A stretch of 64,000 nt of DNA, taken from assembly GCA_001189195.1 (NCBI GenBank), contig LFCQ01000006.1, positions 56,841 through 120,840 of the forward strand, in the 5' to 3' direction. The notes below the pieces were generated by a model. It was not told the origin of the DNA and searched no databases. It was given only the letters and a program-made list of their open reading frames with translations. The position numbers and the translations under genes are program-made. The stretch comes from Parcubacteria bacterium C7867-007 (GTDB taxonomy: Bacteria; Patescibacteriota; Minisyncoccia; Phycocordibacterales; Phycocordibacteraceae). Below, in pieces: positions 9,218 through 26,886 of this stretch; position 1 is the first letter of the stretch; each line of letters opens with the position of its first letter.

Positions 9218-9291
9218 TGCGGGATCGTCTAATGGTAGGACTACGGTTTCTGGTACCGTCTATCTAGGTTCGAGTCCTAGTCCCGCAGCCA
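9218..9291 (+). tRNA. tRNA-Gln(CTG)
   Basis: TGCGGGA/TCCCGCA-G-CCA; anticodon arm ACGGT-TTCTGGT-ACCGT; T-arm CTAGG-TTCGAGT-CCTAG. Confidence 0.95.
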
Positions 9292-9314
9292 GTGTTTAGT
9301 GCTACTCTTACAGC

Positions 9315-10085
9315 ATGGAAATTGATCAGCACAAGAATAAGTTCGGGAGCCAGGCTGAGAACTATACAAAATATCGACGACCATACATGAGTGAAGTGTA
9401 TGATCTTCTTTTCTCATTAGTACCAGAAGACAGTAAAAGGATTCTCGATATCGCATGCGGTACCGGTAAATCAACTGAGCCACTATTACGCTCGGGCCTT
9501 GCAGTTGATGGGGTCGATATTGATCCGTTGATGATCGACGAAGCAAAGGGTCAGGCTAAGGTAAAGAATTTAGATATTACGTATGCGGTTTCAGAAGTTG
9601 AGCACCTTCCATATGAAGACGGAAGCTTTGACGTGGTAACGGTTGGCACCGCATTCCACTGGTTTGTAAACGAGACGGCAATGAATGAGATAAAACGAGT
9701 ATTGAAAAAGGACGGTCTGCTGTTCGTGTACTGGACTCTCACCACCAAGGATGTACCAGAAGAGGATGCGATACCTGCTGCAATCTTTAGGGAATTTAAT
9801 TGGGAGAAAGTTCCATCGGAATTACGTGATCTTGAATACATATCATCTTTTTTCAAGGAACAAGACATGCAGAATGTTTCCACTGAACGCCTCCCATTTA
9901 CGCACAATGATTCAGTAGAAGACCAGGTCGGACTTATGAAGACTGCCTCAAGCTATGAGGTATTGCCCGAGGAAGACAAAGAACGCTTCATAGCAGCAAT
10001 TCAGGCAGCTCTTACTGAACAGTTGGGAAGTCGTCCCTATTTTATCTATGAGGAAGAAATACAGGTTTGCTACGGGTACAGGTAG
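9315..10085 (+). CDS. Class I SAM-dependent methyltransferase
   Basis: Y.KYRRPY, ILDIACGTG, FDVVTVGTAFHWF. Confidence 0.92.
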   Translation: MEIDQHKNKFGSQAENYTKYRRPYMSEVYDLLFSLVPEDSKRILDIACGTGKSTEPLLRSGLAVDGVDIDPLMIDEAKGQAKVKNLDITYAVSEVEHLPYEDGSFDVVTVGTAFHWFVNETAMNEIKRVLKKDGLLFVYWTLTTKDVPEEDAIPAAIFREFNWEKVPSELRDLEYISSFFKEQDMQNVSTERLPFTHNDSVEDQVGLMKTASSYEVLPEEDKERFIAAIQAALTEQLGSRPYFIYEEEIQVCYGYR

Positions 10086-10092
10086 ATAAAAA

Positions 10093-10121
10093 GATCCCCA
10101 CGTCGTACCAAACCCCACAGC
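10093..10121 (+). repeat. Cassette junction repeat 1
   Basis: GATCCCCACGTCGTACCAAACCCCACAGC. Confidence 0.85.
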
Positions 10122-10201
10122 TCGCTAACTATAGTCATCACATTTAAATAAAAAGAAGCCGCCCGGAGCGTGGCGGAGATACTCCGGACGCTTCCAAGCG
10201 G

Positions 10202-10462
10202 CTAATCAAAATCATTCTTCAGCCACCCATCTTGTTCGCTGAGGAATTCGAATTCTTCCACACCGACTCCGATGGTGACCTCAATGTGTGGGTTTTCTTC
10301 ATCAAATTCAAGGTGGTGTGCAATGGCCTCAACCAGCCACCCAATGATGCCCTTGAGAAAGATCGTATCTCCTACCCGAGGCAGAACGGGCCACGAGTAG
10401 TCTTTGGTGAGATAGCGATCCGAACCCTCAGGATCCGGAACAACGAGAACGAATTTAATCAT
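10202..10462 (-). CDS. Hypothetical protein (cassette gene)
   Basis: 86 aa with P.LPRVGD.I motif; own promoter, SD and terminator. Confidence 0.7.
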   Translation of the reverse strand: MIKFVLVVPDPEGSDRYLTKDYSWPVLPRVGDTIFLKGIIGWLVEAIAHHLEFDEENPHIEVTIGVGVEEFEFLSEQDGWLKNDFD

Positions 10463-10541
10463 GGGTCAGACCCTTTGTTTCCTAAATAATTTATACACTA
10501 TTTAAACTAATAAGTCAAATACAGCCTAGATACTTGATTTT

Positions 10542-10569
10542 GGTTCGAATATCGTCCTAGACTGCCAGC
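10542..10569 (+). repeat. Cassette junction repeat 2 (closest to the tRNA-Gln 3' end)
   Basis: GGTTCGAATATCGTCCTAGACTGCCAGC vs tRNA GGTTCGA-----GTCCTAGTCCCGCAGC. Confidence 0.75.
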
Positions 10570-10620
10570 TCGTATTTTTCATACCTTTATGTTTAGATTC
10601 CTTTAGAAAGGAACCATACG

Positions 10621-10788
10621 ATGCACACACCTCCCGAGTTTGACGAAGCTATGGTTGAGGCACCAAAGCCGGAAAAGTCGCCGGAGCCCGGGTCTGACGA
10701 ATATTACGCAGTGCTCGGAAGAGAGATCGACAAGGGCCCGATCGGTGTTCCTCACCACCGAGGTCCGTTATCGGGCCCAATAGATTGA
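10621..10788 (+). CDS. Small hypothetical protein, 55 aa (MHTPPEFDEAMVEAPKPEK...GPID)
   Basis: Read by hand, below the ORF-track cutoff; AAAGGA SD upstream and terminator right after. Confidence 0.55.
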   Translation: MHTPPEFDEAMVEAPKPEKSPEPGSDEYYAVLGREIDKGPIGVPHHRGPLSGPID

Positions 10789-10839
10789 ACTAGGAGCCGC
10801 CAGTACCGAAAGGGAACGGCGGCTCTGCTACTTAAGCAA

Positions 10840-10866
10840 GGTTCCCACGTCGTACCAACCCCCAGC
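10840..10866 (+). repeat. Cassette junction repeat 3
   Basis: GGTTCCCACGTCGTACCAACCCCCAGC. Confidence 0.9.
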
Positions 10867-10891
10867 ACGTCATCTGTGTCATAATCTTTTA

Positions 10892-11398
10892 ATGCGTGTA
10901 ACCATTCTCGGACTTCCTGGAAGCGGCAAGTCCACTTTGGCTCGAAAGATTTCAGAAAAGCTAAATATTCCATATATACATATAGATCGTTTCTGGCTTG
11001 AAGCGGGAGGTGGGCACAATAGCAAAACTACACCTGATCCTGAAAAGGCACATGCAAATGTACGAGAGAAAGTCCTTGAAGCGATACAAGCTGAGTCGTG
11101 GGTATCAGATGGGGTATATCGCCTTGTACAGCCAGAGATAGCAAATAGGGCAGATGCAGTTGTATTTCTTGATATTCCGCTTTGGGAACGATTACTTAAT
11201 CACGCGGCCCGCACCATACACAGAAAGAGTCGACATGATGAGATGACTTTCTGGGGCGATATGAGTTTCTTTCTTGAAATAGTAAGTCGTGATTTACGGA
11301 AGAAAGGGAAAATACAGAGTCTGGTTGAAAGCTATAAGTCTAAGGCAATCATTCTGAAATCCCGTAAGGCGATAGCAAACTACCTTGGAACTCTTTGA
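10892..11398 (+). CDS. Adenylate-kinase-like P-loop protein (FlaR/topology modulation family)
   Basis: ILGLPGSGKSTLA, HID..W, WV.DG.Y, AD.VVFLD. Confidence 0.85.
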   Translation: MRVTILGLPGSGKSTLARKISEKLNIPYIHIDRFWLEAGGGHNSKTTPDPEKAHANVREKVLEAIQAESWVSDGVYRLVQPEIANRADAVVFLDIPLWERLLNHAARTIHRKSRHDEMTFWGDMSFFLEIVSRDLRKKGKIQSLVESYKSKAIILKSRKAIANYLGTL

Positions 11399-11402
11399 TT
11401 AG

Positions 11403-11430
11403 GGTTCCCACGTCGTGCCAAACCCCCAGC
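11403..11430 (+). repeat. Cassette junction repeat 4
   Basis: GGTTCCCACGTCGTGCCAAACCCCCAGC. Confidence 0.9.
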
Positions 11431-11507
11431 ACTTGACTTTTAATGCATTTAGTGCTATTAATAATACAGATCAATCGGCTCGTTGAGCCCACTACTGGAG
11501 ACTTCAA

Positions 11508-11804
11508 ATGAATCCTCGAAATACAACGCTTCTTGCGCTCTCGGCAGTTGCAGCGGCGGTGTTTGCTCTGGTCCCGATCATCGGCATCATGTACAACGGA
11601 GCTACGGCCCAGCTTCTCGAGATGTTCGGTGAAGCTATGGGCTGGGAGTGGCTCGATCACCGCCATCCACACAGCCTTGCCGTCGCTTGGGTGATCTTCA
11701 CCCTGATCTTCTTCTTCGCCCTCAAGCTGTGGTTGAAGTTCGGGAAGCGAGAAGACCCTCTCGTTCGCCTCTTTCGGGAGGCAGGCGGGGAAAAGCGTCA
11801 GTAG
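11508..11804 (+). CDS. Hypothetical 2-TM protein (cassette gene)
   Basis: TTGACT promoter at 11433, GGAG SD, terminator about 11853-11881. Confidence 0.7.
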   Translation: MNPRNTTLLALSAVAAAVFALVPIIGIMYNGATAQLLEMFGEAMGWEWLDHRHPHSLAVAWVIFTLIFFFALKLWLKFGKREDPLVRLFREAGGEKRQ

Positions 11805-11892
11805 CGCGAATCCACCAGCTAGCATCAAACGGCTCACCCAATATGCCGAAATGGGAGCCCCGCACCAGTATGCGGGGTTTTACATACATCAG

Positions 11893-11920
11893 TGCTCGAG
11901 TATCGTACCAAACCCCCAGC
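11893..11920 (+). repeat. Cassette junction repeat 5
   Basis: TGCTCGAGTATCGTACCAAACCCCCAGC. Confidence 0.85.
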
Positions 11921-11996
11921 AATTGACTTTTATATAATATCGTGTTATTTAAATAGAACCAGTTCTTTGCGTATCAAAAAGAGAAGGAAATAGACC

Positions 11997-12791
11997 ATGT
12001 CAAAAGACATGCTCGGCCCGCTTCCGCGGGCTCTCGTTCAGGTGCCGAACAGGCATCACGGTCTCGTACTGGACATTCTCCACAAGCTCGCAGGTGGGCA
12101 GGGGGATTCCGTGCGAAGTAATCTGAGTGCGGCACTTCGGGCACCATCTGAACCTGTGCGGCAGCAAGCTCCGCCGGTCGTACCTATTACGGATGTACCT
12201 GCGGAGTATCGAGCGTTTTTCGAAGCTCTGCCGCCGCTGGATCGTCAGTGGGTGCTCGAGAATCCCCGTACTGCCGTTCCGCTATTCGCACGAGCTGTTG
12301 CTACGGCGCATATCGAGAGCTATCCCTTGGTGCTTGTCGGGACCGCCGACTTTGCTGAAATCAGTGAATTCCGTCCTGCTGAGAAATATCAGCCAGGACA
12401 GCAAATCGACGGCATTCTAATATCACCGCAAATGCATAAGAGCTTCAAGGAGCTTTGCCAGACGGTTGAGCACAACACGCCTGCTGCGACACTGAGATTC
12501 CATTCCTCAAATACCAAGGCCAAAGCATCCAGAATTCTGAGTAGCTTCGGCGACAAGGCAGACACCACGCTCGGCCAGCTCTGGGAATTGATCCAACGGG
12601 AAGAGAAGGATGATCTCCTTCAGGCCAGCCTGCACACGACCATCTACATGTGTTTCCGTAAGGCCGACGGCAACCGTTGTTACGTCTCTGCTTCGTACGC
12701 ACCAGACGGCTGGTACTTCCGGGTGAGGTTTGGTGAGACTGGCTACCATGGGAGGCCCCCGAATAAGGTCGACCGCTTTATCACTCACTGA
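11997..12791 (+). CDS. Hypothetical protein (cassette gene)
   Basis: 264-aa ORF; TTGACT promoter, AAGGA SD, terminator 12796-12829. Confidence 0.75.
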   Translation: MSKDMLGPLPRALVQVPNRHHGLVLDILHKLAGGQGDSVRSNLSAALRAPSEPVRQQAPPVVPITDVPAEYRAFFEALPPLDRQWVLENPRTAVPLFARAVATAHIESYPLVLVGTADFAEISEFRPAEKYQPGQQIDGILISPQMHKSFKELCQTVEHNTPAATLRFHSSNTKAKASRILSSFGDKADTTLGQLWELIQREEKDDLLQASLHTTIYMCFRKADGNRCYVSASYAPDGWYFRVRFGETGYHGRPPNKVDRFITH

Positions 12792-12843
12792 ACAAGGAGC
12801 CGCCTGTTTCCGAAAGGGAACGGCGGCTCTTCTACTTAATATA

Positions 12844-12871
12844 GGTTCCCACGTCGTACCACACCCCCAGC
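12844..12871 (+). repeat. Cassette junction repeat 6
   Basis: GGTTCCCACGTCGTACCACACCCCCAGC. Confidence 0.9.
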
Positions 12872-12948
12872 TCGCAAACTATAGTCATCGTAGGTAAAAA
12901 GAAACCGCCCGAACCGTAAGGAACGGGCAGTTCCTTTGGTTCGGGCAG

Positions 12949-13359
12949 TCATGGTGCCGGATCGGCAAGTGCCTTAGGTACCCCATACATGTTCCACTTG
13001 TCGTCGAAGCGGATGGCGAGGTTCGTCGTCTGTTCGGGATACGCTCTGTGGACGGACCACTTCAGCATCTCGAACAGTATCGGGGTCATCACGTGATTTC
13101 GGAAGTGAGCGAAATTCACGTATGGGTTGATCCCCATGGGCATGTCGTTCGCTTCGTGCATCCCCTCATGTTCAGTCTTCACCTGATCGTAGAGGATAGC
13201 GATCGCTTTCTGTTCAGTCGTCGCCACGCCGATCAGGACGGAGTTCGGCTGACGCTCCAGCAGACGCTTCGGGGGCGGACCCAGTATGTGCCTAGAGGAC
13301 ATGAGCCCCGATAGGCGCTCATGCATCTCTGCAGTGATTAGTTGCATATCTTCTGCCAA
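12949..13359 (-). CDS. Hypothetical protein (cassette gene)
   Basis: 136 aa, GGGAG SD before a TTG start, reverse terminator about 12896-12932. Confidence 0.7.
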   Translation of the reverse strand: MAEDMQLITAEMHERLSGLMSSRHILGPPPKRLLERQPNSVLIGVATTEQKAIAILYDQVKTEHEGMHEANDMPMGINPYVNFAHFRNHVMTPILFEMLKWSVHRAYPEQTTNLAIRFDDKWNMYGVPKALADPAP

Positions 13360-13444
13360 CGTACTCTCCCTAATTCAAATTCAACCTAAGTGTATTTTAA
13401 CATCTATTGTATAAAAATCAAATATGGCCTAGACACTCGATTTC

Positions 13445-13471
13445 GGTTCGAATATCGTACCACACCCCACC
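13445..13471 (+). repeat. Cassette junction repeat 7
   Basis: GGTTCGAATATCGTACCACACCCCACC. Confidence 0.85.
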
Positions 13472-13499
13472 TCGTCATCGTAGCTGTATAATTTAGGAT

Positions 13500-13865
13500 A
13501 TGAACAAAACATCTAAACTTATTCTCGTCGCAGTAATTGGAATAATCGTTGGTGCCGGAGGTACTTTGGCTCTATCACCAAAGAATAATACTCAACCTGA
13601 AATGATTTCTCATGGAAACATGAATATGCAGGGAGAAATGGGGAGAATGGCTCAGGTCCTCGAAGGGAAGACCGGTGATACGTTCGACCAAGCATTTTTA
13701 AGCGAGATGATCGTACATCACCAGGGCGCTGTTCAGATGGCTCAAGCTGCACTTCAGAACGCAAAGCATCAGGAGATTAAAGATCTCGCTACAAAGATTA
13801 TCTCGGCACAAGAGTCAGAGATTATCGAAATGCAGGGTTGGCAGAAGAGCTGGTACGGACAGTAG
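13500..13865 (+). CDS. DUF305 (CopM-like) protein
   Basis: FD.AFL.EMI.HHQGAV.MA...I...Q..EI..M..W. Confidence 0.9.
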   Translation: MNKTSKLILVAVIGIIVGAGGTLALSPKNNTQPEMISHGNMNMQGEMGRMAQVLEGKTGDTFDQAFLSEMIVHHQGAVQMAQAALQNAKHQEIKDLATKIISAQESEIIEMQGWQKSWYGQ

Positions 13866-13930
13866 GAGAGATTCCCAAGGGTAAGGCCGTCTCAAATGAG
13901 ACGGCCCACGTACGCTTTGGTTTGTACTTG

Positions 13931-14458
13931 CTACTCGATACGGATTGGTCGAACAATAGGTATTCGAATCCGTAGCATATTCTCTGCACGTGCACCGAAC
14001 TGAGTTCGAAGTCCACTCACGCCATCGGTGAAATACTTAGCATACACATTCACGGCATTGAAGTTGAGTGCATATGCCCACACCACAAAGGTGAGATGGC
14101 TTTCAATCCGATCGTTGCTTTCCTTCGTCCACGTCAGGAGTGCCTGCATGCATTCCTGTATGAGACGTGGAGCAAGTCCTTTGCCTTGGTGTGCGGGAAG
14201 GATGCCGATCTGATCCAGCTCTATAACTGGTTCAGCACGGTGGAATCCTCCATGCAGTTGCCAACCTGCGTATCCCACCACCACGTCATCTTCTTCAACC
14301 ACAAAGTACTGGTAGAGGGGGAATGCATTGAACCAGCACGTAGCCCATCGCTGGGCTCCATCAAACTGGTCACGATCTCCCAGGAAGACGCTTCCGTTGA
14401 TGAGGCCAATGGCCTCGAGGTCCCGTTCTTCGGCACGCCGAATATTGATGGTGCTCAT
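13931..14458 (-). CDS. GNAT-family N-acetyltransferase
   Basis: IRRA...DL, VVGYA, HQGKGLA motif A. Confidence 0.85.
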   Translation of the reverse strand: MSTINIRRAEERDLEAIGLINGSVFLGDRDQFDGAQRWATCWFNAFPLYQYFVVEEDDVVVGYAGWQLHGGFHRAEPVIELDQIGILPAHQGKGLAPRLIQECMQALLTWTKESNDRIESHLTFVVWAYALNFNAVNVYAKYFTDGVSGLRTQFGARAENMLRIRIPIVRPIRIE

Positions 14459-14581
14459 GATTCTTCTCCCTGCTTCTATTCTCTAGAACCGCACATACAC
14501 CTTTTGGTTACTATAAATAAAAAACCGCCCCCTCGCGCCAACGAAGGGGTTAGGCTTCGTTGCAACAAAGTGACGGATACG

Positions 14582-14911
14582 CTATCTCATTGCTGAGGGC
14601 ACCAAGGACACAAGGTCCTGGGCGGTCATGCCCAGAGCGTTGGCGAGGTTGAGTGTGTTGACCAACATCTTCGTAGTCGCCATGCGCAGAGCTTCTGGAT
14701 CAAGCTCGCCGCCGTGGTCGTAGTTCTCAGCCTGCGCAGCAATTATGCCTCCGGTCTTGGCTATGTGCGCACTGCTGTGCCGTACAGCGAAGGCCAATGT
14801 CTTTTCAGGTGTGCTGAGATCCCCATTTGGGTACTTCTCTTGGGTGAAGGGGAATCCATCCCCGATCACCTGCATCAACGAAGTGAGATCGGTAGTTGGT
14901 GTCATGGTCAT
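14582..14911 (-). CDS. Hypothetical protein
   Basis: 109-aa helical ORF with AGGAG SD. Confidence 0.7.
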   Translation of the reverse strand: MTMTPTTDLTSLMQVIGDGFPFTQEKYPNGDLSTPEKTLAFAVRHSSAHIAKTGGIIAAQAENYDHGGELDPEALRMATTKMLVNTLNLANALGMTAQDLVSLVPSAMR

Positions 14912-15040
14912 GGAACGCTCCTTGTCTGGATGGAAGGTACCACAAAACTATCTAAGCCTCCAACATAGATAAACAGGGATGATGGTGTCGTCTCTGTGCA
15001 TGTATTCGCACATGCATTGCGGAGGATATACACTAACACT

Positions 15041-15430
15041 ATGCCTGCAGAACTGCGTAAAGCGCTTACTCTAAATCCTAGAGCAAAAGTGAAGTGGGAT
15101 CTCCTTACCCCAATTAGCAAAAGAGACTTCATCACCTGGATAGAGTCTGCAAAACAGGATGCTACTCGTGTTCGTAGAGTGAGCAAGGCAGTGGACATAC
15201 TTATAAAAGGAAAGCGTCGTCCTTGTTGTTATGCAGTGGTGCCGATGAATCTGTACAAGACTCTTAATGAGCTCCCAAAAGCAAAGGCACAATGGAAAGA
15301 TCTCACTCCCGATGAGAAACGAGACTTTGTTGCCTGGATAGACTCTGGAAAGGACGCAGGGGTACGTGCACAGCGTATTGAGAAAACAAGCATTCTGCTC
15401 CTTAAAGGGAAACGACGAGCATCTATATAA
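15041..15430 (+). CDS. YdeI/OmpD-associated family protein (two repeats)
   Basis: Two copies of W..LTP..KRDF..WI.S.K...R..R. Confidence 0.85.
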   Translation: MPAELRKALTLNPRAKVKWDLLTPISKRDFITWIESAKQDATRVRRVSKAVDILIKGKRRPCCYAVVPMNLYKTLNELPKAKAQWKDLTPDEKRDFVAWIDSGKDAGVRAQRIEKTSILLLKGKRRASI

Positions 15431-15491
15431 AAGAAATCGCCTGGCGTGTGAGGATGCAATCCTCACACGCCAGGCGATCAGTCCCAACTCC

Positions 15492-16187
15492 CTATTTCGG
15501 AGTACAGATGTGGATGTAGTCTCCATAGCCGGAATCGTGATCCGGCCAGGGTTGAATGGTGATCACACTGCCGAAGTGGCGTTGAAGCGGCTCAAGCCGT
15601 TGCTTGAGTGATGTCTTGAACTCTTCCTTCAGGACATCGTTGTACAGGATATCTATCGTCCACTTGATGACTTGATCGGTGGCGCCATTCCTGATGGCTT
15701 CAAGCAGATACTCGTACCCCAGCCTGCTAGCAGCGAGCCTCCGTTCAGTTTCCGTGTTGAAGTCTTCGACGTAGCAGTCGGAGATCACCACCACGCCACC
15801 CGGCTTAACCATGCTGGCGATATTGGCGATTGCCGCTTCCTGTTGCGCATACGGTACATGATGCAGAGAGCCCGTGCAGACCACGGTGTCGAAGAGTCTC
15901 CGGGGTTGCCAGTTGAGTACGTCACCGACGAAAAACTCAACTCCCAGATACCGATCTCTTCCGAAACGGACGTATCGCTTGTCCAGATCCATGCCTGTCA
16001 ACCACAGATCCGAACGACCCTCCTGGAGCTTTCCAAGCAGATAGCCGGGTCCGCACATAATATCGAGTACGCTTCCGTTCAAGGGAGTACGTTCCAAGAC
16101 CTTCGCGGTGACAAGTTCTAGCGAGAGCCTATAGGGCCAATACCCAAGACTTTCTTCGTACAGTTCGGCTTCTGGTAGGGGATTCAT
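15492..16187 (-). CDS. Class I SAM-dependent methyltransferase
   Basis: VLDIMCGPG, FD.VV..G.LHH, KPGG; start MNPLP after GAGGAGG SD. Confidence 0.85.
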   Translation of the reverse strand: MNPLPEAELYEESLGYWPYRLSLELVTAKVLERTPLNGSVLDIMCGPGYLLGKLQEGRSDLWLTGMDLDKRYVRFGRDRYLGVEFFVGDVLNWQPRRLFDTVVCTGSLHHVPYAQQEAAIANIASMVKPGGVVVISDCYVEDFNTETERRLAASRLGYEYLLEAIRNGATDQVIKWTIDILYNDVLKEEFKTSLKQRLEPLQRHFGSVITIQPWPDHDSGYGDYIHICTPK

Positions 16188-16294
16188 TTGGGGACCCTCC
16201 TCAGGTCTTACTATGAATGACAAATAACGTTCGAGTGCAGAATACCACTTATTTCAGATATATCCAGATTATTAAGAATTGCTATAGTTTCACT

Positions 16295-16723
16295 ATGAAG
16301 CAGCAGGATTTCACAAAGCGACTCACCATAGTAGTTCGTACGGATATTGAGTCATGGCAGGGAGCAAATACTATTGCCCACATTGCGGGATATGTAGGAA
16401 ATAAGTTAGGAGAAGCTTTTGATACAGGAACGTATTTCATCACCGCAGATGGTGTGGAGCTTCCAAGAAATTCTCAGTATCCAATGATAATTAAAGCTGC
16501 TCAATGCGCTACAGATATACGGGATGCGTATGACATTATTCGTACTCACGATCTAATACACATCGGATTCATACGGGAAATGATAGAAACTAGTGATGAT
16601 TCTGAAATAGAAACCATCCTTAAGGATAAGAAGCATAAAGATATTGAGTTGCTAGGTTTCGGGGTCTTTGGAGAGAATGAGACCGTGAAAGAACTTACCA
16701 AACAATTTACGCTTTGGAAGTAG
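16295..16723 (+). CDS. DUF2000-family protein
   Basis: IVVR.D...WQ..N..AH; E.LG.GVFG....V..LT..F.LW. Confidence 0.7.
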   Translation: MKQQDFTKRLTIVVRTDIESWQGANTIAHIAGYVGNKLGEAFDTGTYFITADGVELPRNSQYPMIIKAAQCATDIRDAYDIIRTHDLIHIGFIREMIETSDDSEIETILKDKKHKDIELLGFGVFGENETVKELTKQFTLWK

Positions 16724-16760
16724 TTGTTCAATTTTCCTAAAATCAAGCTATAGTGCATCT

Positions 16761-17378
16761 ATGATAAAGGCAGTCATATTTGATTCAGACGGGATGCTCT
16801 CGCACGGCCCAAGGTTTAGCGATACGTATGCGAGAGAACAGAATATTCCTATTGAGGAAATGATCCCTTTCTTCACAGGCCCTTTCAAAGACTGTCTTAT
16901 CGGAAAAGCAGACCTAAAAGACGAGCTTGAAAAGGGAGACTGGCTCCAAAAGTGGGGTTGATCAGACTCCGTTGATGCGTTTCTTGCATACTGGTTTTCG
17001 GTCGGGGACCAACTAGATGAGAAGGTGTTTGCTTCCATTCAAGAACTCCGTAGTGCGGGGGTTATGGTGGTGCTTGCAACGAATCAAGAGAAATACCGCA
17101 CCGCATATCTTTCTGAGAAGTTTAATTACGAATCTGCGTTCAACAGAATATTCTCTTCGGCACATACCGGACACAAGAAACCAAGTGCGGAATTCTTTCA
17201 GAAGATTCTTGAATATCTCCAAGAGCAAGATGCTTCAATCACTAAGGACAATATTCTCTTTTGGGATGATGATATAGAAAATGTAGAGGGAGCTGCTATG
17301 TTCGGTATTGTGTCTGAGCAGTTTCTAGATGAAAAGGGGTATCGAACCAAAATGGCTGAGTACGGAATACTTAATTAG
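16761..17378 (+). pseudogene. HAD-family hydrolase interrupted by an in-frame TGA at 16959-16961
   Basis: IKAVIFDSDG motif I, then the same frame continues to ATNQ, KP, FWDD..ENV motifs. Confidence 0.75.
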
Positions 17379-17911
17379 GTTTTAAATTTGAATAGAGGTT
17401 TCTTAAGAAGGTACATAACTAGAATCGCACTGACTATTCCAACAACACCCCCTGCAATCATATCGGAAGGGTAGTGAACGCCTGCAGCAACTCGGGCTGC
17501 ACAAACGAGGACCGTACAGATATAGAACACAATACCGAGGGTTCGGTTATAGAAAAAGACTATGGTTGAAAATCCAAACAGGAACGATGCGTGTCCTGAT
17601 GGGAAGGAGGGTGCTTCGATAATAAAGAGATGCGTTATATCCATTGCTGCTAAAGGGCGGTCCCGAGGAAAGAAGAATCGTATGGGACTCGTAACAGCAA
17701 AGCGAGCAATACTGCCAGCAAGTAGTGCAAGTAAAAAGGCGACTATCTTCGATCGATGTGAAAGTTCCTTTTTATATACAAGATAGAGTGCAAACCACCC
17801 CACCAGAATAAAGGGAAGGTATGTAGCAAAGAAGACAATAACAGCATCAGATACCGGACCTTGCCCAGCAAAGGAGTTTAATACATTGAACACATATAGA
17901 TCCAAAGACAT
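17375..17911 (-). CDS. PAP2-family phosphatase (BcrC-like)
   Basis: R.RP, SFPSGH, ARV.AGVHYPSD. Confidence 0.92.
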   Translation of the reverse strand: MSLDLYVFNVLNSFAGQGPVSDAVIVFFATYLPFILVGWFALYLVYKKELSHRSKIVAFLLALLAGSIARFAVTSPIRFFFPRDRPLAAMDITHLFIIEAPSFPSGHASFLFGFSTIVFFYNRTLGIVFYICTVLVCAARVAAGVHYPSDMIAGGVVGIVSAILVMYLLKKPLFKFKT

Positions 17912-17984
17912 AAATGCAGCGTACTACAGATTTGTGTATGAGTATGCCTGTATAACAAAACACCCCGCTGTGCGGGGTGTTTTG

Positions 17985-18200
17985 TTATGAGTGTGCCGGT
18001 ACCGGTTTACGAACGCTTGTGGCGTACGGCCCTTTCAGGCTCTTCGTAACGAGGAAGGCGAGCTTGTCACCGATGCGTAGATCCGTGAAGGAAACATCAA
18101 TGAGATCGCTTGCGTCGAAGAATAGTTCTTCGTCTGAGCCCTCCTGCTTTATGAAGCCAGAACTCCGTTCACTGAAACTTGAAATGGTTCCTGTGCGCAT
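17985..18200 (-). CDS. Cold-shock domain protein
   Basis: MRTGTI...GFI...ELFF...KGP.A..V. Confidence 0.8.
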   Translation of the reverse strand: MRTGTISSFSERSSGFIKQEGSDEELFFDASDLIDVSFTDLRIGDKLAFLVTKSLKGPYATSVRKPVPAHS

Positions 18201-18255
18201 GAGATGAGCATTACACTGATAAGAGAATAAAAAGCGTCCATGAGGACGCTTTTTA

Positions 18256-18462
18256 TTAAACCTTGCTAACGTTTACTGCGTTCTTCTTTGCAGGATCGTT
18301 CTTGCTTGGAGCGATCTCGAATTCGAGAGTGTCCCCAGGGTTGAGGTCATCAATACGAACGTTTACGAGCTCGTTAGCGTGAAAGAAGAGATCTGGCTCT
18401 CCTTCGATCTTGATAAAGCCGAAGCCTTTTGGATTAATTCCTGCGATAGTTCCTGTTTGCAT
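18256..18462 (-). CDS. Cold-shock domain protein
   Basis: KGFGFI (RNP1), DLFFH (RNP2), A.NV. Confidence 0.9.
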   Translation of the reverse strand: MQTGTIAGINPKGFGFIKIEGEPDLFFHANELVNVRIDDLNPGDTLEFEIAPSKNDPAKKNAVNVSKV

Positions 18463-18638
18463 AATATGTATGAGCGATGCACCTGATAACAATCAAGTGC
18501 AGGAGGTTCAACTCGACGAGTTAGACTCATACCGATACTGCCCAGCGCTGCGATTGATATTCCCAATTTACCATTTCAGAGATCGATTGTCAATTTAGGG
18601 TCGTACTCCAGTCTTTGTTTTGCTATAGTGTGCACATT

Positions 18639-19526
18639 ATGACCTATCAGGTGCTGCTTTTCTATAAGTACATAACCATTGAAGATCCAGCAGCTCTGGC
18701 GGATCATGTGCGTTCCCTTGCGCAGAAACATTCACTTCTTGGTCGTGCACTTATTGCAGAAGAAGGTATCAATGCCACTTTTGAGGGAGAGGTCTCAGCT
18801 ACCGAGGCATTCGCTGCAGAGTTTCTCACAGACCCACGTTTTGCAGACATGCAGATAAAGCGGAGCGAAGGGGATGGTGCTGCTTTCCCAAAGCTTGCGG
18901 TGAAGGTACGTGAGCAAATCGTAGGAACACGTTTTTCAAAGGAGAAAGCAGATCCTCGTGTACAGACTGCACCACGTATTCAGCCTGAAGAACTTAAACG
19001 GTGGTTTGAAGAAGCAGAGGACTTCACTATCATTGATATGCGCAACGACTACGAGTATCGTTCCGGTCATTTTAAGGGATCGATAAACCCTGAGCTTGAG
19101 AATTCACGTGATCTTCCCGATGCGATGCCAAAACTCATGCCACTTAAAGAAAAGAAAGTCCTCACCGTGTGTACCGGGGGAGTACGCTGTGAATCAATGA
19201 GCGCATACCTTATGAGTGAAGGCTTCACTGATGTGTATCAGCTTGAGAATGGGATGCATGGCTATATGGAGAAGTACCCTGGAGAGGATTTCCTAGGAAC
19301 GCTCTATACTTTTGATCGTCGCAAGGTGATGGACTTCGGTGGTGAGAGAGAAGTGATTGGTACTTGTCATCGTTGCCAGGGGAAAACAGAGAAGTATACA
19401 AACTGTGCAAATGATCTGTGTCACCTACATTTCCTGGTGTGTGACGATTGTTCCCGCGAGGACGGAACGTATTGTTCTGAGAGCTGTGAGAAGATGCTTT
19501 CATCAGCTGGAAAACTCGAGTCTTAG
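18639..19526 (+). CDS. trhO: Rhodanese-related tRNA uridine(34) hydroxylase (TrhO/YceA family)
   Basis: LLFYKY, GR.LIA.EGIN, D.RNDYE..GHF, CTGGVRCE, C-terminal Cys cluster. Confidence 0.88.
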   Translation: MTYQVLLFYKYITIEDPAALADHVRSLAQKHSLLGRALIAEEGINATFEGEVSATEAFAAEFLTDPRFADMQIKRSEGDGAAFPKLAVKVREQIVGTRFSKEKADPRVQTAPRIQPEELKRWFEEAEDFTIIDMRNDYEYRSGHFKGSINPELENSRDLPDAMPKLMPLKEKKVLTVCTGGVRCESMSAYLMSEGFTDVYQLENGMHGYMEKYPGEDFLGTLYTFDRRKVMDFGGEREVIGTCHRCQGKTEKYTNCANDLCHLHFLVCDDCSREDGTYCSESCEKMLSSAGKLES

Positions 19527-19555
19527 CCCTTTAGCAAGTATGTTAGTCTGAAAAT

Positions 19556-20101
19556 ATGAAAAGGGTATTTATAGTACTCATAGCCTCTCTACTACTTTTA
19601 GTACTCGGTTTCTTTGTTATTAGCTCGTATATCTACAATAAGAAGCAGGATCCGAGTGAGTCTTCAGGGAACACCTCATTATCTGAGGGGTGCCCTTATG
19701 GAGATTACTACACTCTTACAAAAGGGAATGAAGAGTATAAAAACAGCAAGCGGGGCTACAGTCTTGTGTTGCCAAAGGATTATTATTTTCCTACAAATGA
19801 AGAGAACGAGAACGAATCAGACCCGCACTTCTACGATTGCGTAGCAGGAATTGGCTTTGAGTTACAAGACGGTACACGCTCATTTGAAGAGCTTAGCGCA
19901 AGGCAGGATACAGAAACAATAATCACTACCTCTGTATTTCCGGGAGCAACAATATCAGGTGGTAAATACACAGGAGATTATACGAAAGGATGGGATTATA
20001 TCTACACAGTTGTATATTCAAACGAAAAGAGAGGCTTTGTTTTTGCATCAAATCGTCCAATTAGTGAGTATGTCTTTTTAAGTACATTCAAGATTTTCTA
20101 A
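19556..20101 (+). CDS. Hypothetical membrane-anchored protein
   Basis: N-terminal TM; lower GC; followed by a cassette-type repeat. Confidence 0.75.
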   Translation: MKRVFIVLIASLLLLVLGFFVISSYIYNKKQDPSESSGNTSLSEGCPYGDYYTLTKGNEEYKNSKRGYSLVLPKDYYFPTNEENENESDPHFYDCVAGIGFELQDGTRSFEELSARQDTETIITTSVFPGATISGGKYTGDYTKGWDYIYTVVYSNEKRGFVFASNRPISEYVFLSTFKIF

Positions 20102-20109
20102 ATTAATCT

Positions 20110-20137
20110 AGTTCCCACTTCGTACAAAACCTCAAGC
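20110..20137 (+). repeat. Degenerate, distal copy of the cassette junction repeat
   Basis: AGTTCCCACTTCGTACAAAACCTCAAGC. Confidence 0.65.
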
Positions 20138-24787: not shown

Positions 24788-24817
24788 TTGACGTTCGAAC
24801 AATTGTTCGACTATACT
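24788..24817 (+). promoter_or_regulatory. lexA promoter with an SOS-box-like operator CGAAC-AATT-GTTCG (24796-24809)
   Basis: TTGACG...TATACT flank a perfect palindrome matching the Gram-positive CGAAC-N4-GTTCG box. Confidence 0.8.
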
Positions 24818-24823
24818 GTTTCT

Positions 24824-25390
24824 ATGGAAATGAGCCGACACAGGAAGGTATTGTCCTTCTATAAGAAACATAAGCGTATGCCCTCTATAACGGAGATTAT
24901 GGCTATATTTGGCCTCTCTTCACGCAGTAGCGGGTTCTATGTAACAAACCAGTTAGTGCGCGAAGGTATTGCAGAGAAGGATAGTACCGGAAAGCTCATT
25001 CCTGGCCCGGACCTATTTACGCTTCCGGTACTCGGTCACATTCGTGCCGGATTTGCTGCACCTGCAGAAGAAGAACTTGCAGACACTATTACCATCGGTG
25101 ATTACCTCCTAGGACGACCTGAAGCGAGCTACCTACTAAAAGTGGAAGGTGACTCCATGCAAGATGCCGGTATACAGGAAGGAGACATGGTGGTGTTTGA
25201 GCGCACCAATGATTACAAACCAGGGGACATTGTTGTTGCTCTCACAGAAGATGGATACACCCTCAAGTATCTGCGCAAGAAACCGAATGGATATTATCTG
25301 GAGGCAGCTAACGATAAGTATCCAGATATACATCCGCGAGAAGGTTCTATTATTGGTGTCGTCGTATCAACATTTCGTACCTATGGCTAA
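24824..25390 (+). CDS. lexA: LexA-family repressor / S24 peptidase
   Basis: MPS..EI wHTH, I.AG cleavage site, V.GDSM catalytic Ser, TLK catalytic Lys. Confidence 0.88.
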   Translation: MEMSRHRKVLSFYKKHKRMPSITEIMAIFGLSSRSSGFYVTNQLVREGIAEKDSTGKLIPGPDLFTLPVLGHIRAGFAAPAEEELADTITIGDYLLGRPEASYLLKVEGDSMQDAGIQEGDMVVFERTNDYKPGDIVVALTEDGYTLKYLRKKPNGYYLEAANDKYPDIHPREGSIIGVVVSTFRTYG

Positions 25391-25580
25391 ACTCTCTACC
25401 TTCGATCCGTTCTTCAGCATGTATCTACGTACACCCGCGCGTCATACCACTACACGCCACACATCACAGTTTGCATCCTTCACAGAACGGGAACGGCGAT
25501 ACCTCTCTCCTAAACGTATGATCCCACTATCTCTGCGTTCTGAACGTGTGTCCGCACGTCAATCAGTGGTTCATGAGTGA
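25383..25580 (+). CDS. Small basic hypothetical protein between lexA and the Y-family polymerase
   Basis: 65 aa; overlaps the lexA stop and the polymerase start. Confidence 0.45.
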   Translation: MAKLSTFDPFFSMYLRTPARHTTTRHTSQFASFTERERRYLSPKRMIPLSLRSERVSARQSVVHE

Positions 25581-26886
25581 TCTGCTTTCAACACGATCCT
25601 TTCCACGCGCAATCGTACACTTTGATGGTGACTCCTTCTTTGCATCAGTAGAGCAAATCATGAATCATGAGTTGCGTGGCAAGCCGGTAATCACCGGTGG
25701 AGAGCGTGGCGCTGCGACATCTCTTTCGTATGAAGCAAAGCGTATGGGTGCACATCGCGGTATGACAATGCGTGAAATTAAAAAGATATGTCCAGACGCA
25801 ATCATTGTTGCTTCGGACTATCTTTCATATTCCATATATGCACGACGCATGTATACGATCGTTCGTTCCTTCACACCCGATGTGGAGGAATACAGTATTG
25901 ATGAATGTTTTGCAGACATAACCGGACTCAGACAGAAATACCGTATGTCCTATGCACGCATCACACAAATGATTCAGGAGAAGCTCCATGCAGATCTTGG
26001 TATCACCTTTAGTGCAGGACTCGGTCCCAACAAGAGTCTTGCAAAGATTGCGTCAAAACATCGTAAACCAGCAGGCTTCACCTCTATTCCTGCAAAAGAA
26101 GCACATCTGTTTCTTAAAGATCTTCCCATAAGCAATATCTGGGGCATGGGAGGAAGTACCAGCTTGTATCTAGAGAAGTTGGGGGTACGCACTGCACTCG
26201 AGTTTGCACAAAAGGATGAGTACTGGCTTGCAACAAATAAGATTAGCAAGCCGTATCGTGATATATGGCTTGAGATGCGAGGCTCTTTTGTTAAGAAGCT
26301 GAACACTGAGACCGATGATTCAATTGGCTCAATCATGAAGACACAAACCTTCACACCCCCTTCGAGTGATCGTGCGTATGTACTCTCACAGCTTGCTCGA
26401 AACATAGAGGGTGCCTGTGCAAAAGCACGCAGGCATCAAGTAAGAGCACGGTCGGCATCATTCTACTTAAAGACACAAGATTTCACCTATGGTGGTCTTT
26501 CTATAGAGCTTTCAGTGCCGCTTGCAGATCCACGAGAATTCCAGAGACTCGTAGAAATAGAGTTCGATCGTGTATTTGAACCAGGAACACTCTATCGTGC
26601 CACGGGATTCACTCTTCGATCCATCACTGCAGAGTATGCAGCCACAAACGATCTGTTCGGAGACATAGAGCGCGCACAGACTAAGGAACGTATTCTAGAA
26701 ACAGTAGATGGGCTTAATCATAAATTCGGAAATGGTACCGTGCATTTCGCCTCCAGCTTCACTGCGCGTAAAGAGGGCGAGGAGCGTGCAAAAGAAAGGG
26801 CACGTAAAGCTCGTCCAAAGATTGGACTCTCTGTTGAGAAGAAACGAAAGTCTCTCAACATCCCATACCTAGGTATTGTTCGGTAG
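25573..26886 (+). CDS. dinB: Y-family DNA polymerase (DinB/UmuC-like)
   Basis: H.D.DSFFASVE, SYEAK, YSIDE.F.D, LAK.AS...KP; UmuC-like tail (D.LN.KFG). Confidence 0.88.
   Translation: MSDLLSTRSFPRAIVHFDGDSFFASVEQIMNHELRGKPVITGGERGAATSLSYEAKRMGAHRGMTMREIKKICPDAIIVASDYLSYSIYARRMYTIVRSFTPDVEEYSIDECFADITGLRQKYRMSYARITQMIQEKLHADLGITFSAGLGPNKSLAKIASKHRKPAGFTSIPAKEAHLFLKDLPISNIWGMGGSTSLYLEKLGVRTALEFAQKDEYWLATNKISKPYRDIWLEMRGSFVKKLNTETDDSIGSIMKTQTFTPPSSDRAYVLSQLARNIEGACAKARRHQVRARSASFYLKTQDFTYGGLSIELSVPLADPREFQRLVEIEFDRVFEPGTLYRATGFTLRSITAEYAATNDLFGDIERAQTKERILETVDGLNHKFGNGTVHFASSFTARKEGEERAKERARKARPKIGLSVEKKRKSLNIPYLGIVR

Follow-up and report, generated by a model that had tools for sequence, protein, structure and literature searches.

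The closest known system to the locus described here is that of tandem islands of the staphylococcal cassette chromosome (SCC). As far as PMC13739063 sets it out, Ccr large serine recombinases (LSRs) act there on the 3' end of a host gene, rlmH, tandem elements are split by internal att sites, and some att-bounded units carry no recombinase; SCC units span 1-200 kb, and composites made up 92 of 1,562 extractions. The present locus lies behind a tRNA-Gln gene in a 64,000-nucleotide stretch (below, the window) of Parcubacteria bacterium C7867-007 (GCA_001189195.1, contig LFCQ01000006.1, positions 56,841 to 120,840), and it is a row of mutually unrelated one-gene units separated by short direct repeats. 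The 28-base tag of these units is also the tail of a recombinase gene in relatives, and the row is therefore likely an integron-like stack built by an LSR. In our judgment, the array is quite probably a stack of seven self-contained one-gene cassettes, serially inserted at the 3' end of tRNA-Gln by an LSR that likely acts in trans, with the repeats as likely P arms of attP.

Like SCC composites, this locus combines LSRs, a host-gene 3' end as the target, and tandem units without a recombinase between internal sites. However, its units are single-gene units of 0.3-1.4 kb, with up to 15 per stack and up to 12 landing sites per genome, the CcrB scores were 69 and 117 against a cut-off of 900, and the target is tRNA-Gln instead of rlmH. 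The att sites of A118/LI-type serine integrases, in so far as PMC3783163 covers them, are similar in having a P half-site of about 25 bp, a distal motif that lies 5 bp further inward in the B half-site, and a short shared core, and the autonomous elements of this type encode an LSR with resolvase and recombinase domains. By comparison, only the left arms are conserved here, the target would be regenerated and reused many times, attP would lie inside the 3' end of the recombinase gene, and most units have no recombinase. With integrons and CALINs (clusters of attC sites lacking integrases), as outlined in PMC4889954, the locus shares an array of variable one-ORF (open reading frame) cassettes with one site each, a distinct head site, likely polar insertion, and diverse, mostly unfamiliar genes; the lack of an integrase beside the array is CALIN-like. 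Nevertheless, neither IntI nor a folded attC was found, the site appears to be a serine integrase arm at a tRNA gene, and whereas integrons have a Pc promoter and mostly promoterless cassettes, the cassettes here bear promoter-like motifs and 94 of 324 are reversed. The array thus works like an integron but does not qualify as one. The Tycheposons of Prochlorococcus, to the extent described in bioRxiv 10.1101/2020.12.28.424599, also integrate successively at tRNA genes of a streamlined genome and push older elements outwards, but they have their own, mostly tyrosine, integrase and flanking partial tRNAs, whereas the units here are minimal, have no integrase, and end in non-tRNA P arms 5 nt longer than the tRNA end. 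Literature searches, in whose coverage subscription papers and supplements were largely lacking, did not find the system described. The parts of the locus are as follows.

9218-9291 (+): intact tRNA-Gln(CTG), the array anchor (ARAGORN; Rfam RF00005)
9267-9289 (+): B arm (host-side half-site), the final 23 nt of the tRNA from GGTTC to CAGC; putative left arm of attB and putative entry point for new cassettes
9286-9289 (+): CAGC core common to the tRNA end and the repeats; probable place of strand exchange, judged from breakpoints
9290-10121 (+): cassette 1, 832 bp, class I S-adenosylmethionine (SAM) methyltransferase (PF08241), ORF 9315-10085 (256 aa)
10093-10121 (+): repeat 1 (P arm), 29 nt, one base extra
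10122-10569 (-): cassette 2, 448 bp, reverse ORF 10202-10462 (86 aa) with no family; both end sequences common with cassette 7
10542-10569 (+): repeat 2 (P arm)
10570-10866 (+): cassette 3, 297 bp, doubtful 55-aa ORF 10621-10788, then a hairpin at 10794-10825 common with cassette 6
10840-10866 (+): repeat 3 (P arm), 27 nt, one base short
10867-11430 (+): cassette 4, 564 bp, P-loop kinase-like / "DNA topology modulation protein" family (PF13207; PRK08118 below cut-off), ORF 10892-11398 (168 aa)
11403-11430 (+): repeat 4 (P arm)
11431-11920 (+): cassette 5, 490 bp, hydrophobic ORF 11508-11804 (98 aa) with no family; TTGAC at its start
11893-11920 (+): repeat 5 (P arm), degenerate left end
11921-12871 (+): cassette 6, 951 bp, ORF 11997-12791 (264 aa) of an unnamed family found mainly in Patescibacteria
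12844-12871 (+): repeat 6 (P arm)
12872-13471 (-): cassette 7, 600 bp, reverse ORF 12949-13359 (136 aa) with no family
13445-13471 (+): repeat 7 (P arm), with the degenerate core CACC; the stack ends here distally
13500-13865 (+): DUF305/CopM-like gene past the last repeat, not demonstrated to be a cassette; its homologues mostly have no repeat nearby
20110-20137 (+): eighth, degenerate repeat in the same orientation, which may close an older 6.6-kb block (13472-20137)

An earlier note, made from the letters of the window, had pointed out seven same-strand repeats of about 28 bp (at 10093, 10542, 10840, 11403, 11893, 12844, and 13445), and all of them were found again, together with the one-ORF units of 0.3-0.95 kb in both orientations: cut after the terminal CAGC of each repeat, the units measure 297-951 bp, and the single main ORF of each is forward in five and reverse in two. 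The extent it had given (9267..13870) holds for the seven units, but the DUF305 gene lies outside the last repeat, and the weaker repeat at 20110 had been missed. A matrix built on the seven repeats and iterated over the genome gave 39 sites scoring above 14, having been trained on the same sites that it counts, whereas six Markov-shuffled genomes gave none (maximum 13.4). The region 9230-11932 was matched without a difference by one contig of run X1, which may be the source sample, and over this part the array is not an assembly artefact; between 11933 and 12144, no listed piece of that run bridges the sequence. Protein family searches found no integrase in the array, and a pattern and folding scan found no attC, as had been claimed: there are 0 attC-type RYYYAAC...GTTRRRY pairs on either strand, and the predicted folding of the repeats is weak (0 to -4.5 kcal/mol).

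The link between the repeats and serine recombinases lies in their coding structure. The reverse strand of the repeat translates as L[AG]VW[DY]D[VI][GR]T, and 10 of the 16 frequent variants among 402 repeats are synonymous in the recombinase frame, where 26% would be expected; in each of the other five frames, 3-8 of the 16 are synonymous. At L196, an LSR of 577 aa runs in frame through the repeat and has the C-terminus LLAVWGDVGT, and the LSR of L388, which is 77% identical, ends in LLRDLDSNQ within the tRNA; their DNA homology begins at CAGC. An LSR tail fragment in the array L547 also reads through a repeat. Among the 59 LSR ORFs from all fetched loci, 10 end antisense in tRNA-Gln, another 3 end in stand-alone B arms of the Gln type, and a single one runs through a repeat. 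We also compared 40 tRNA-Gln loci of relatives, picked for a close tRNA match or a high repeat count, and in 3 of these an LSR ORF runs antisense into the tRNA end in the same frame as the repeat reading. The span from GGTTC to CAGC is 28 nt long in the repeat, compared with 23 nt in the tRNA, and the zinc-ribbon motifs of serine integrases are displaced by 5 bp between attP and attB in the account of PMC3783163. The synonymy in the recombinase frame and the 5-bp offset of GGTTC thus indicate that the repeat is likely the element-side half-site, and we infer from these sequence features that the repeat would correspond to the P half of attP, and the end of the tRNA to the B half of attB. In 300 P and 93 B contexts, the sequence that follows CAGC showed no conserved motif, only two A-rich bases, and the pseudo-palindromic site with a conserved right arm that is expected of serine integrases was not found. 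LSR genes tied to the site were found in relatives and not within this array, and they support the view, already taken in the earlier note, that a serine integrase acts in trans; its suggestion that a recombinase might lie beside the same repeat held for relatives, but the intact LSR of this genome lies elsewhere, as discussed below. Apart from tRNA-Gln, many LSR ORFs of Patescibacteria end inside tRNA 3' ends (His, Asp, Asn, Ser, Lys, Gly, Val, Thr, and Leu; L389-L416), indicating that integration may commonly rewrite the C-terminus of the enzyme.

The cassettes also appear to behave as mobile units when relatives are compared. At the 40 loci, the upstream genes (CTP synthase-like and DUF1761) are kept at most of the CTG loci, and the downstream content varies, as it should if the order were not fixed; a repeat lies within 2.6 kb at 18 of them. 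Among 221 other genomes of the genus, 41 match part of the array, chiefly the DUF305 gene. Cassette 7 has an 82% homologue in G201 between different repeats and neighbours, a homologue of cassette 1 is the first cassette behind tRNA-Gln(TTG) in G026, cassette 4 has a 79% homologue in L431 ahead of a different downstream gene, and one cassette of this genome, 363 bp long, matches a cassette at another array position in L264 over its full length with 93% identity. Cassette sizes have a median of 560 bp (5-95% range, 281-1357 bp), and 324 cassettes hold 275 gene families. These observations support repeated site-specific capture of small non-autonomous units. Promoters and terminators on the cassettes had been claimed as well: a strict scan of the array found no more of them than shuffled sequence did (5 vs 5.8 and 4 vs 3.4), but across the 324 cassettes promoter-like motifs were enriched about 4-fold, in 100 of 230 forward cassettes (24 shuffled) and 69 of 94 reverse ones (16 shuffled). 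Unrelated ORFs lie within near-identical promoter or terminator ends in 11 and 23 pairs, respectively, against 0 of 20000 controls, which suggests ORF-precise swapping into reusable promoter-terminator frames. Such shared ends occur within the window at 10786-10866 with 12789-12871 and at 10122-10171 with 12872-12917, and further cases are L280, L372, and L323; cassettes 3 and 6 become alike from the stop codon onwards. In addition, cassette 6 shares its start with a cassette on contig C1 and its hairpin end with unrelated cassettes of three relatives.

In the mechanism that we propose, a circular cassette with a single P arm would recombine with the B arm at CAGC. An enzyme that reads left arms only would convert B.x + P.y into B.y + P.x, whereby the B arm survives and the stack grows at the tRNA end. 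Because the tRNA and the B arm would stay intact, the site would be reusable and older cassettes would be pushed outwards. In the reverse reaction, the B arm would recombine with any P arm downstream of it and the proximal cassette or a block would be cut out, which would make this a last-in-first-out stack. Since the cassettes would bring their own promoter and terminator, gene orientation would be free. In 14 of 19 arrays, repeats score lower the farther they lie from the B arm (mean rho -0.41; 0 of 1000 permutations). Candidates for the acting enzyme are the single intact LSR of the genome, with 440 aa, and visiting autonomous elements. The other 10 sampled members of the clade of this LSR lie 2-8 kb behind tRNA-Gln, in a sample chosen by that position. 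Its own island, behind tRNA-Ser(CGA) from C2:144270 onwards, also holds apparently metal-handling genes, recognised from translations only, and a distal att arm of this island was looked for and not found. An LSR fragment lies behind a stand-alone B arm at C2:41634-46550. A search for LSRs in viral contigs gave 7 distant loci, one of which ends at a tRNA-Gln-type arm and none of which is circular.

Several results weigh against serial insertion by an LSR. Neither a circle nor a back-joint turned up in two contig sets, none of 139 metagenome or viral loci had a terminal repeat, and no empty site of the same strain was seen. In run X1, the joints 9289-10543 and 10572-18472 were considered as excision and rejected, as the intervening sequence is unread and the sides are 30 nt; they were read as the contig of another organism. 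Homologues of the genes of cassettes 1 and 4 occur without repeats in 5 relatives, and homologous cassettes can differ in repeat type (cassette 4 and its L431 counterpart), indicating that repeats were also altered after insertion. The array of the window has no distal decay (rho +0.43), and its repeats are of a minority type for the matrix. The island of the 440-aa LSR lies behind tRNA-Ser, and no repeat was found there; some repeat-rich relatives (G020, G066, and G018) have no PF07508 match. In a quick tree of 56 of the 59 LSRs (those over 380 aa), the tRNA-Gln-ending ones fall in at least 5 lineages and thus do not point to one cognate enzyme. Canonical serine integrases, as PMC3783163 presents them, do not reuse attL as attB, and therefore relaxed right arms must be assumed. 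Finally, L196 alone is silent on which of its two elements came first.

The alternative that survives best, though we still consider it unlikely, is a pile of scars, in which larger autonomous LSR islands were inserted and then shrank to the present units, and one-gene units were never mobile. It would account for the recombinase codon structure kept in the repeats, for the LSR tails or relics within some arrays (L547 and L197), and for the 2-9 kb LSR islands behind tRNA-Gln in relatives, and it fits with the lack of circles in the material searched. However, a given short unit is found again, with both of its ends, in other genomes and at other positions, unit sizes are tight around their median, unrelated ORFs sit in near-identical ends, and a long open frame through the repeat was found in only 15 of 993 repeat matches (overlapping loci counted). 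Much less probable is homologous or short-homology recombination at the repeats and the shared promoter and terminator ends without any dedicated enzyme. Gene shuffling by short homology is known from the PeSL (early promoter and stem-loop) cassettes of T4-type phages, and the ends of 45-80 nt common to unrelated cassettes, together with the uniformity of repeat types inside arrays, are in line with it, but the B-arm head, the 5-bp offset, the recombinase codon pattern, and the polarity are left unexplained. On top of serial LSR insertion, homologous recombination may nevertheless add gene swapping and repeat homogenisation.

A further alternative concerns the place of strand exchange. The earlier note had put the crossover at a central GT, which would make the repeat a hybrid site, its left arm coming from a cassette and its right arm being tRNA-like and displaced from the tRNA end. 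Its counts of matches between the right half and the tRNA end (11/16 for the consensus and 12/16 for repeat 2) proved correct, repeats 2 and 7 are alike upstream and in the left half and unlike on the right, and some pairs with a common 5' start also have a rare CCCC variant upstream. Nevertheless, strand exchange appears to map to the terminal CAGC, to which the switch in LSR homology and a cassette boundary test narrow it (4 nt). In this test, whose pairs are not independent, cassettes with a common 3' end had similar right halves in their own repeats (0.68 vs 0.46 at random, 35 pairs), but the sequence past CAGC was not alike (0.31 vs 0.29); at a stricter threshold, the result was borderline (13 pairs, p 0.06). 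For cassettes with a common 5' start, the right half of the upstream repeat was not significantly alike (0.59, p 0.13, 8 pairs), and in 10 of 22 pairs with a common start one cassette lies behind a B arm and the other behind a P arm. Moreover, tRNA-Gln(TTG) has TC instead of GT at this place and yet heads the longest arrays, and the same element start is found behind CTG and TTG tRNAs whose sequences differ as far as CAGC. Shared elements become homologous immediately past CAGC, both repeat halves co-vary with the upstream cassette, and the entire repeat corresponds to C-terminal codons of the recombinase. The central-GT geometry is therefore largely refuted, and we give it hardly any weight. 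Equally hard to credit is a tyrosine recombinase (an integron IntI or the Xer-like enzyme of this genome) acting on the repeats, because, although the genome has one and the layout is integron-like, its single PF00589 protein fits best as XerD/XerC (137 bits against an integron-integrase cut-off of 265) and adjoins housekeeping genes, and the array has neither the attC pattern nor a stable hairpin.

Repeats and tRNA ends of the same kind are found throughout the genome (702 kb, 99% complete), which has 39 repeat copies in 15 groups. At the head of ten groups is a clearly recognisable tRNA-Gln end of 23 nt, in 2 of them that of a real gene and in 8 a stand-alone copy; of the others, two are headed by degenerate copies, one by tRNA-Trp, and two are lone. 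Thus, 12 of 15 groups are headed by a tRNA-Gln end, and the 10 stand-alone copies that head other arrays had been missed by the earlier note. Stand-alone 23-nt copies lie at C1:84510, C1:118726, C2:3276, C2:41634, C3:71427, C3:84229, C3:67423, C3:19588, and C8:7247, and the degenerate ones after tRNA-Pro (C3) and ahead of the C1:223739 array. In 4 cases such a pad coincides with a stop codon to within 2 nt, and others follow a tRNA other than tRNA-Gln (Ile, Lys, or Pro) at a distance of 6-9 nt. At C1:20815 (minus strand), a tRNA-Trp-like repeat variant closes a 592-bp unit behind tRNA-Trp, which is the same design at another tRNA.

Named records with the same repeat are, among the matches listed, nearly all from Parcubacteria/Paceibacteria or other Patescibacteria (at least 80 loci). 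In the genus, a looser pattern matched in 77 of 150 genomes, 23 of them with four or more copies, against 9 control matches. In the phylum, a stricter pattern matched in 6 of 300 other genomes against 4 control matches, and the presence of this sequence across all of the candidate phyla radiation is thus not supported. Viral contigs gave at least 120 repeat matches, but nearly all among the matches listed share one conserved coding context unrelated to the arrays and were taken as chance. We also surveyed 75 B-headed arrays, with search patterns that favoured the D type and genomes related by kinship. B arms with GGTTCGA-TC carry D-type repeats in 24 of 24 cases, Y- and R-type repeats are the prevailing types solely in arrays headed by other B arms (21 of 51), and all three Y-type arrays of this genome have GT/AT arms. 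These classes may reflect two recombinase specificities or in-array conversion.

As for the content of the array, the G+C fraction of the seven cassettes is 0.44-0.54, and five of the seven ORFs have no assigned family, the SAM methyltransferase and the P-loop kinase-like protein being the named ones. A homologue search with the 55-aa ORF of unit 3 returned only itself; the ESM Atlas gave only unnamed clusters for the 264-aa protein of cassette 6 and no match for the 136-aa protein of cassette 7. PADLOC gave generic methyltransferase and P-loop matches only, and no defence role is claimed; the tRNA is the sole Rfam match. Beyond the stack, the accessory block 13472-20137 encodes GNAT, OmdA, a methyltransferase, DUF2000, PAP2, and two cold-shock-like ORFs, and it is possibly an older island. 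At 24788-26886 of the window, a LexA/UmuD-like ORF adjoins a Y-family-polymerase-like ORF, both recognised from translations only.

Taken more widely, the system could be a serine-recombinase analogue of the integron, with about a dozen copied tRNA-Gln pads per genome in this genus, whose members are ultra-small, a shared pool of hundreds of promoter-bearing cassettes, and an LSR that reads no more than the left half of its sites; its stacks would be reversible, with at least two pad and cassette classes, ORFs would be swapped into reusable frames, and the rewriting of the LSR C-terminus on integration would be a possible switch. We see about as much reason to accept this wider view as to doubt it. 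If true, bacteria would have arrived at integron-like gene cassettes by a second route of independent origin. The structural model of serine integrase directionality would be put to the test by an LSR for which left half-sites suffice and which restores its target, and such an enzyme could serve iterative gene stacking. For these bacteria with tiny genomes, it would mean a dedicated gene-capture platform, of which none is known in the searchable literature, and a concrete source for many of their orphan genes.

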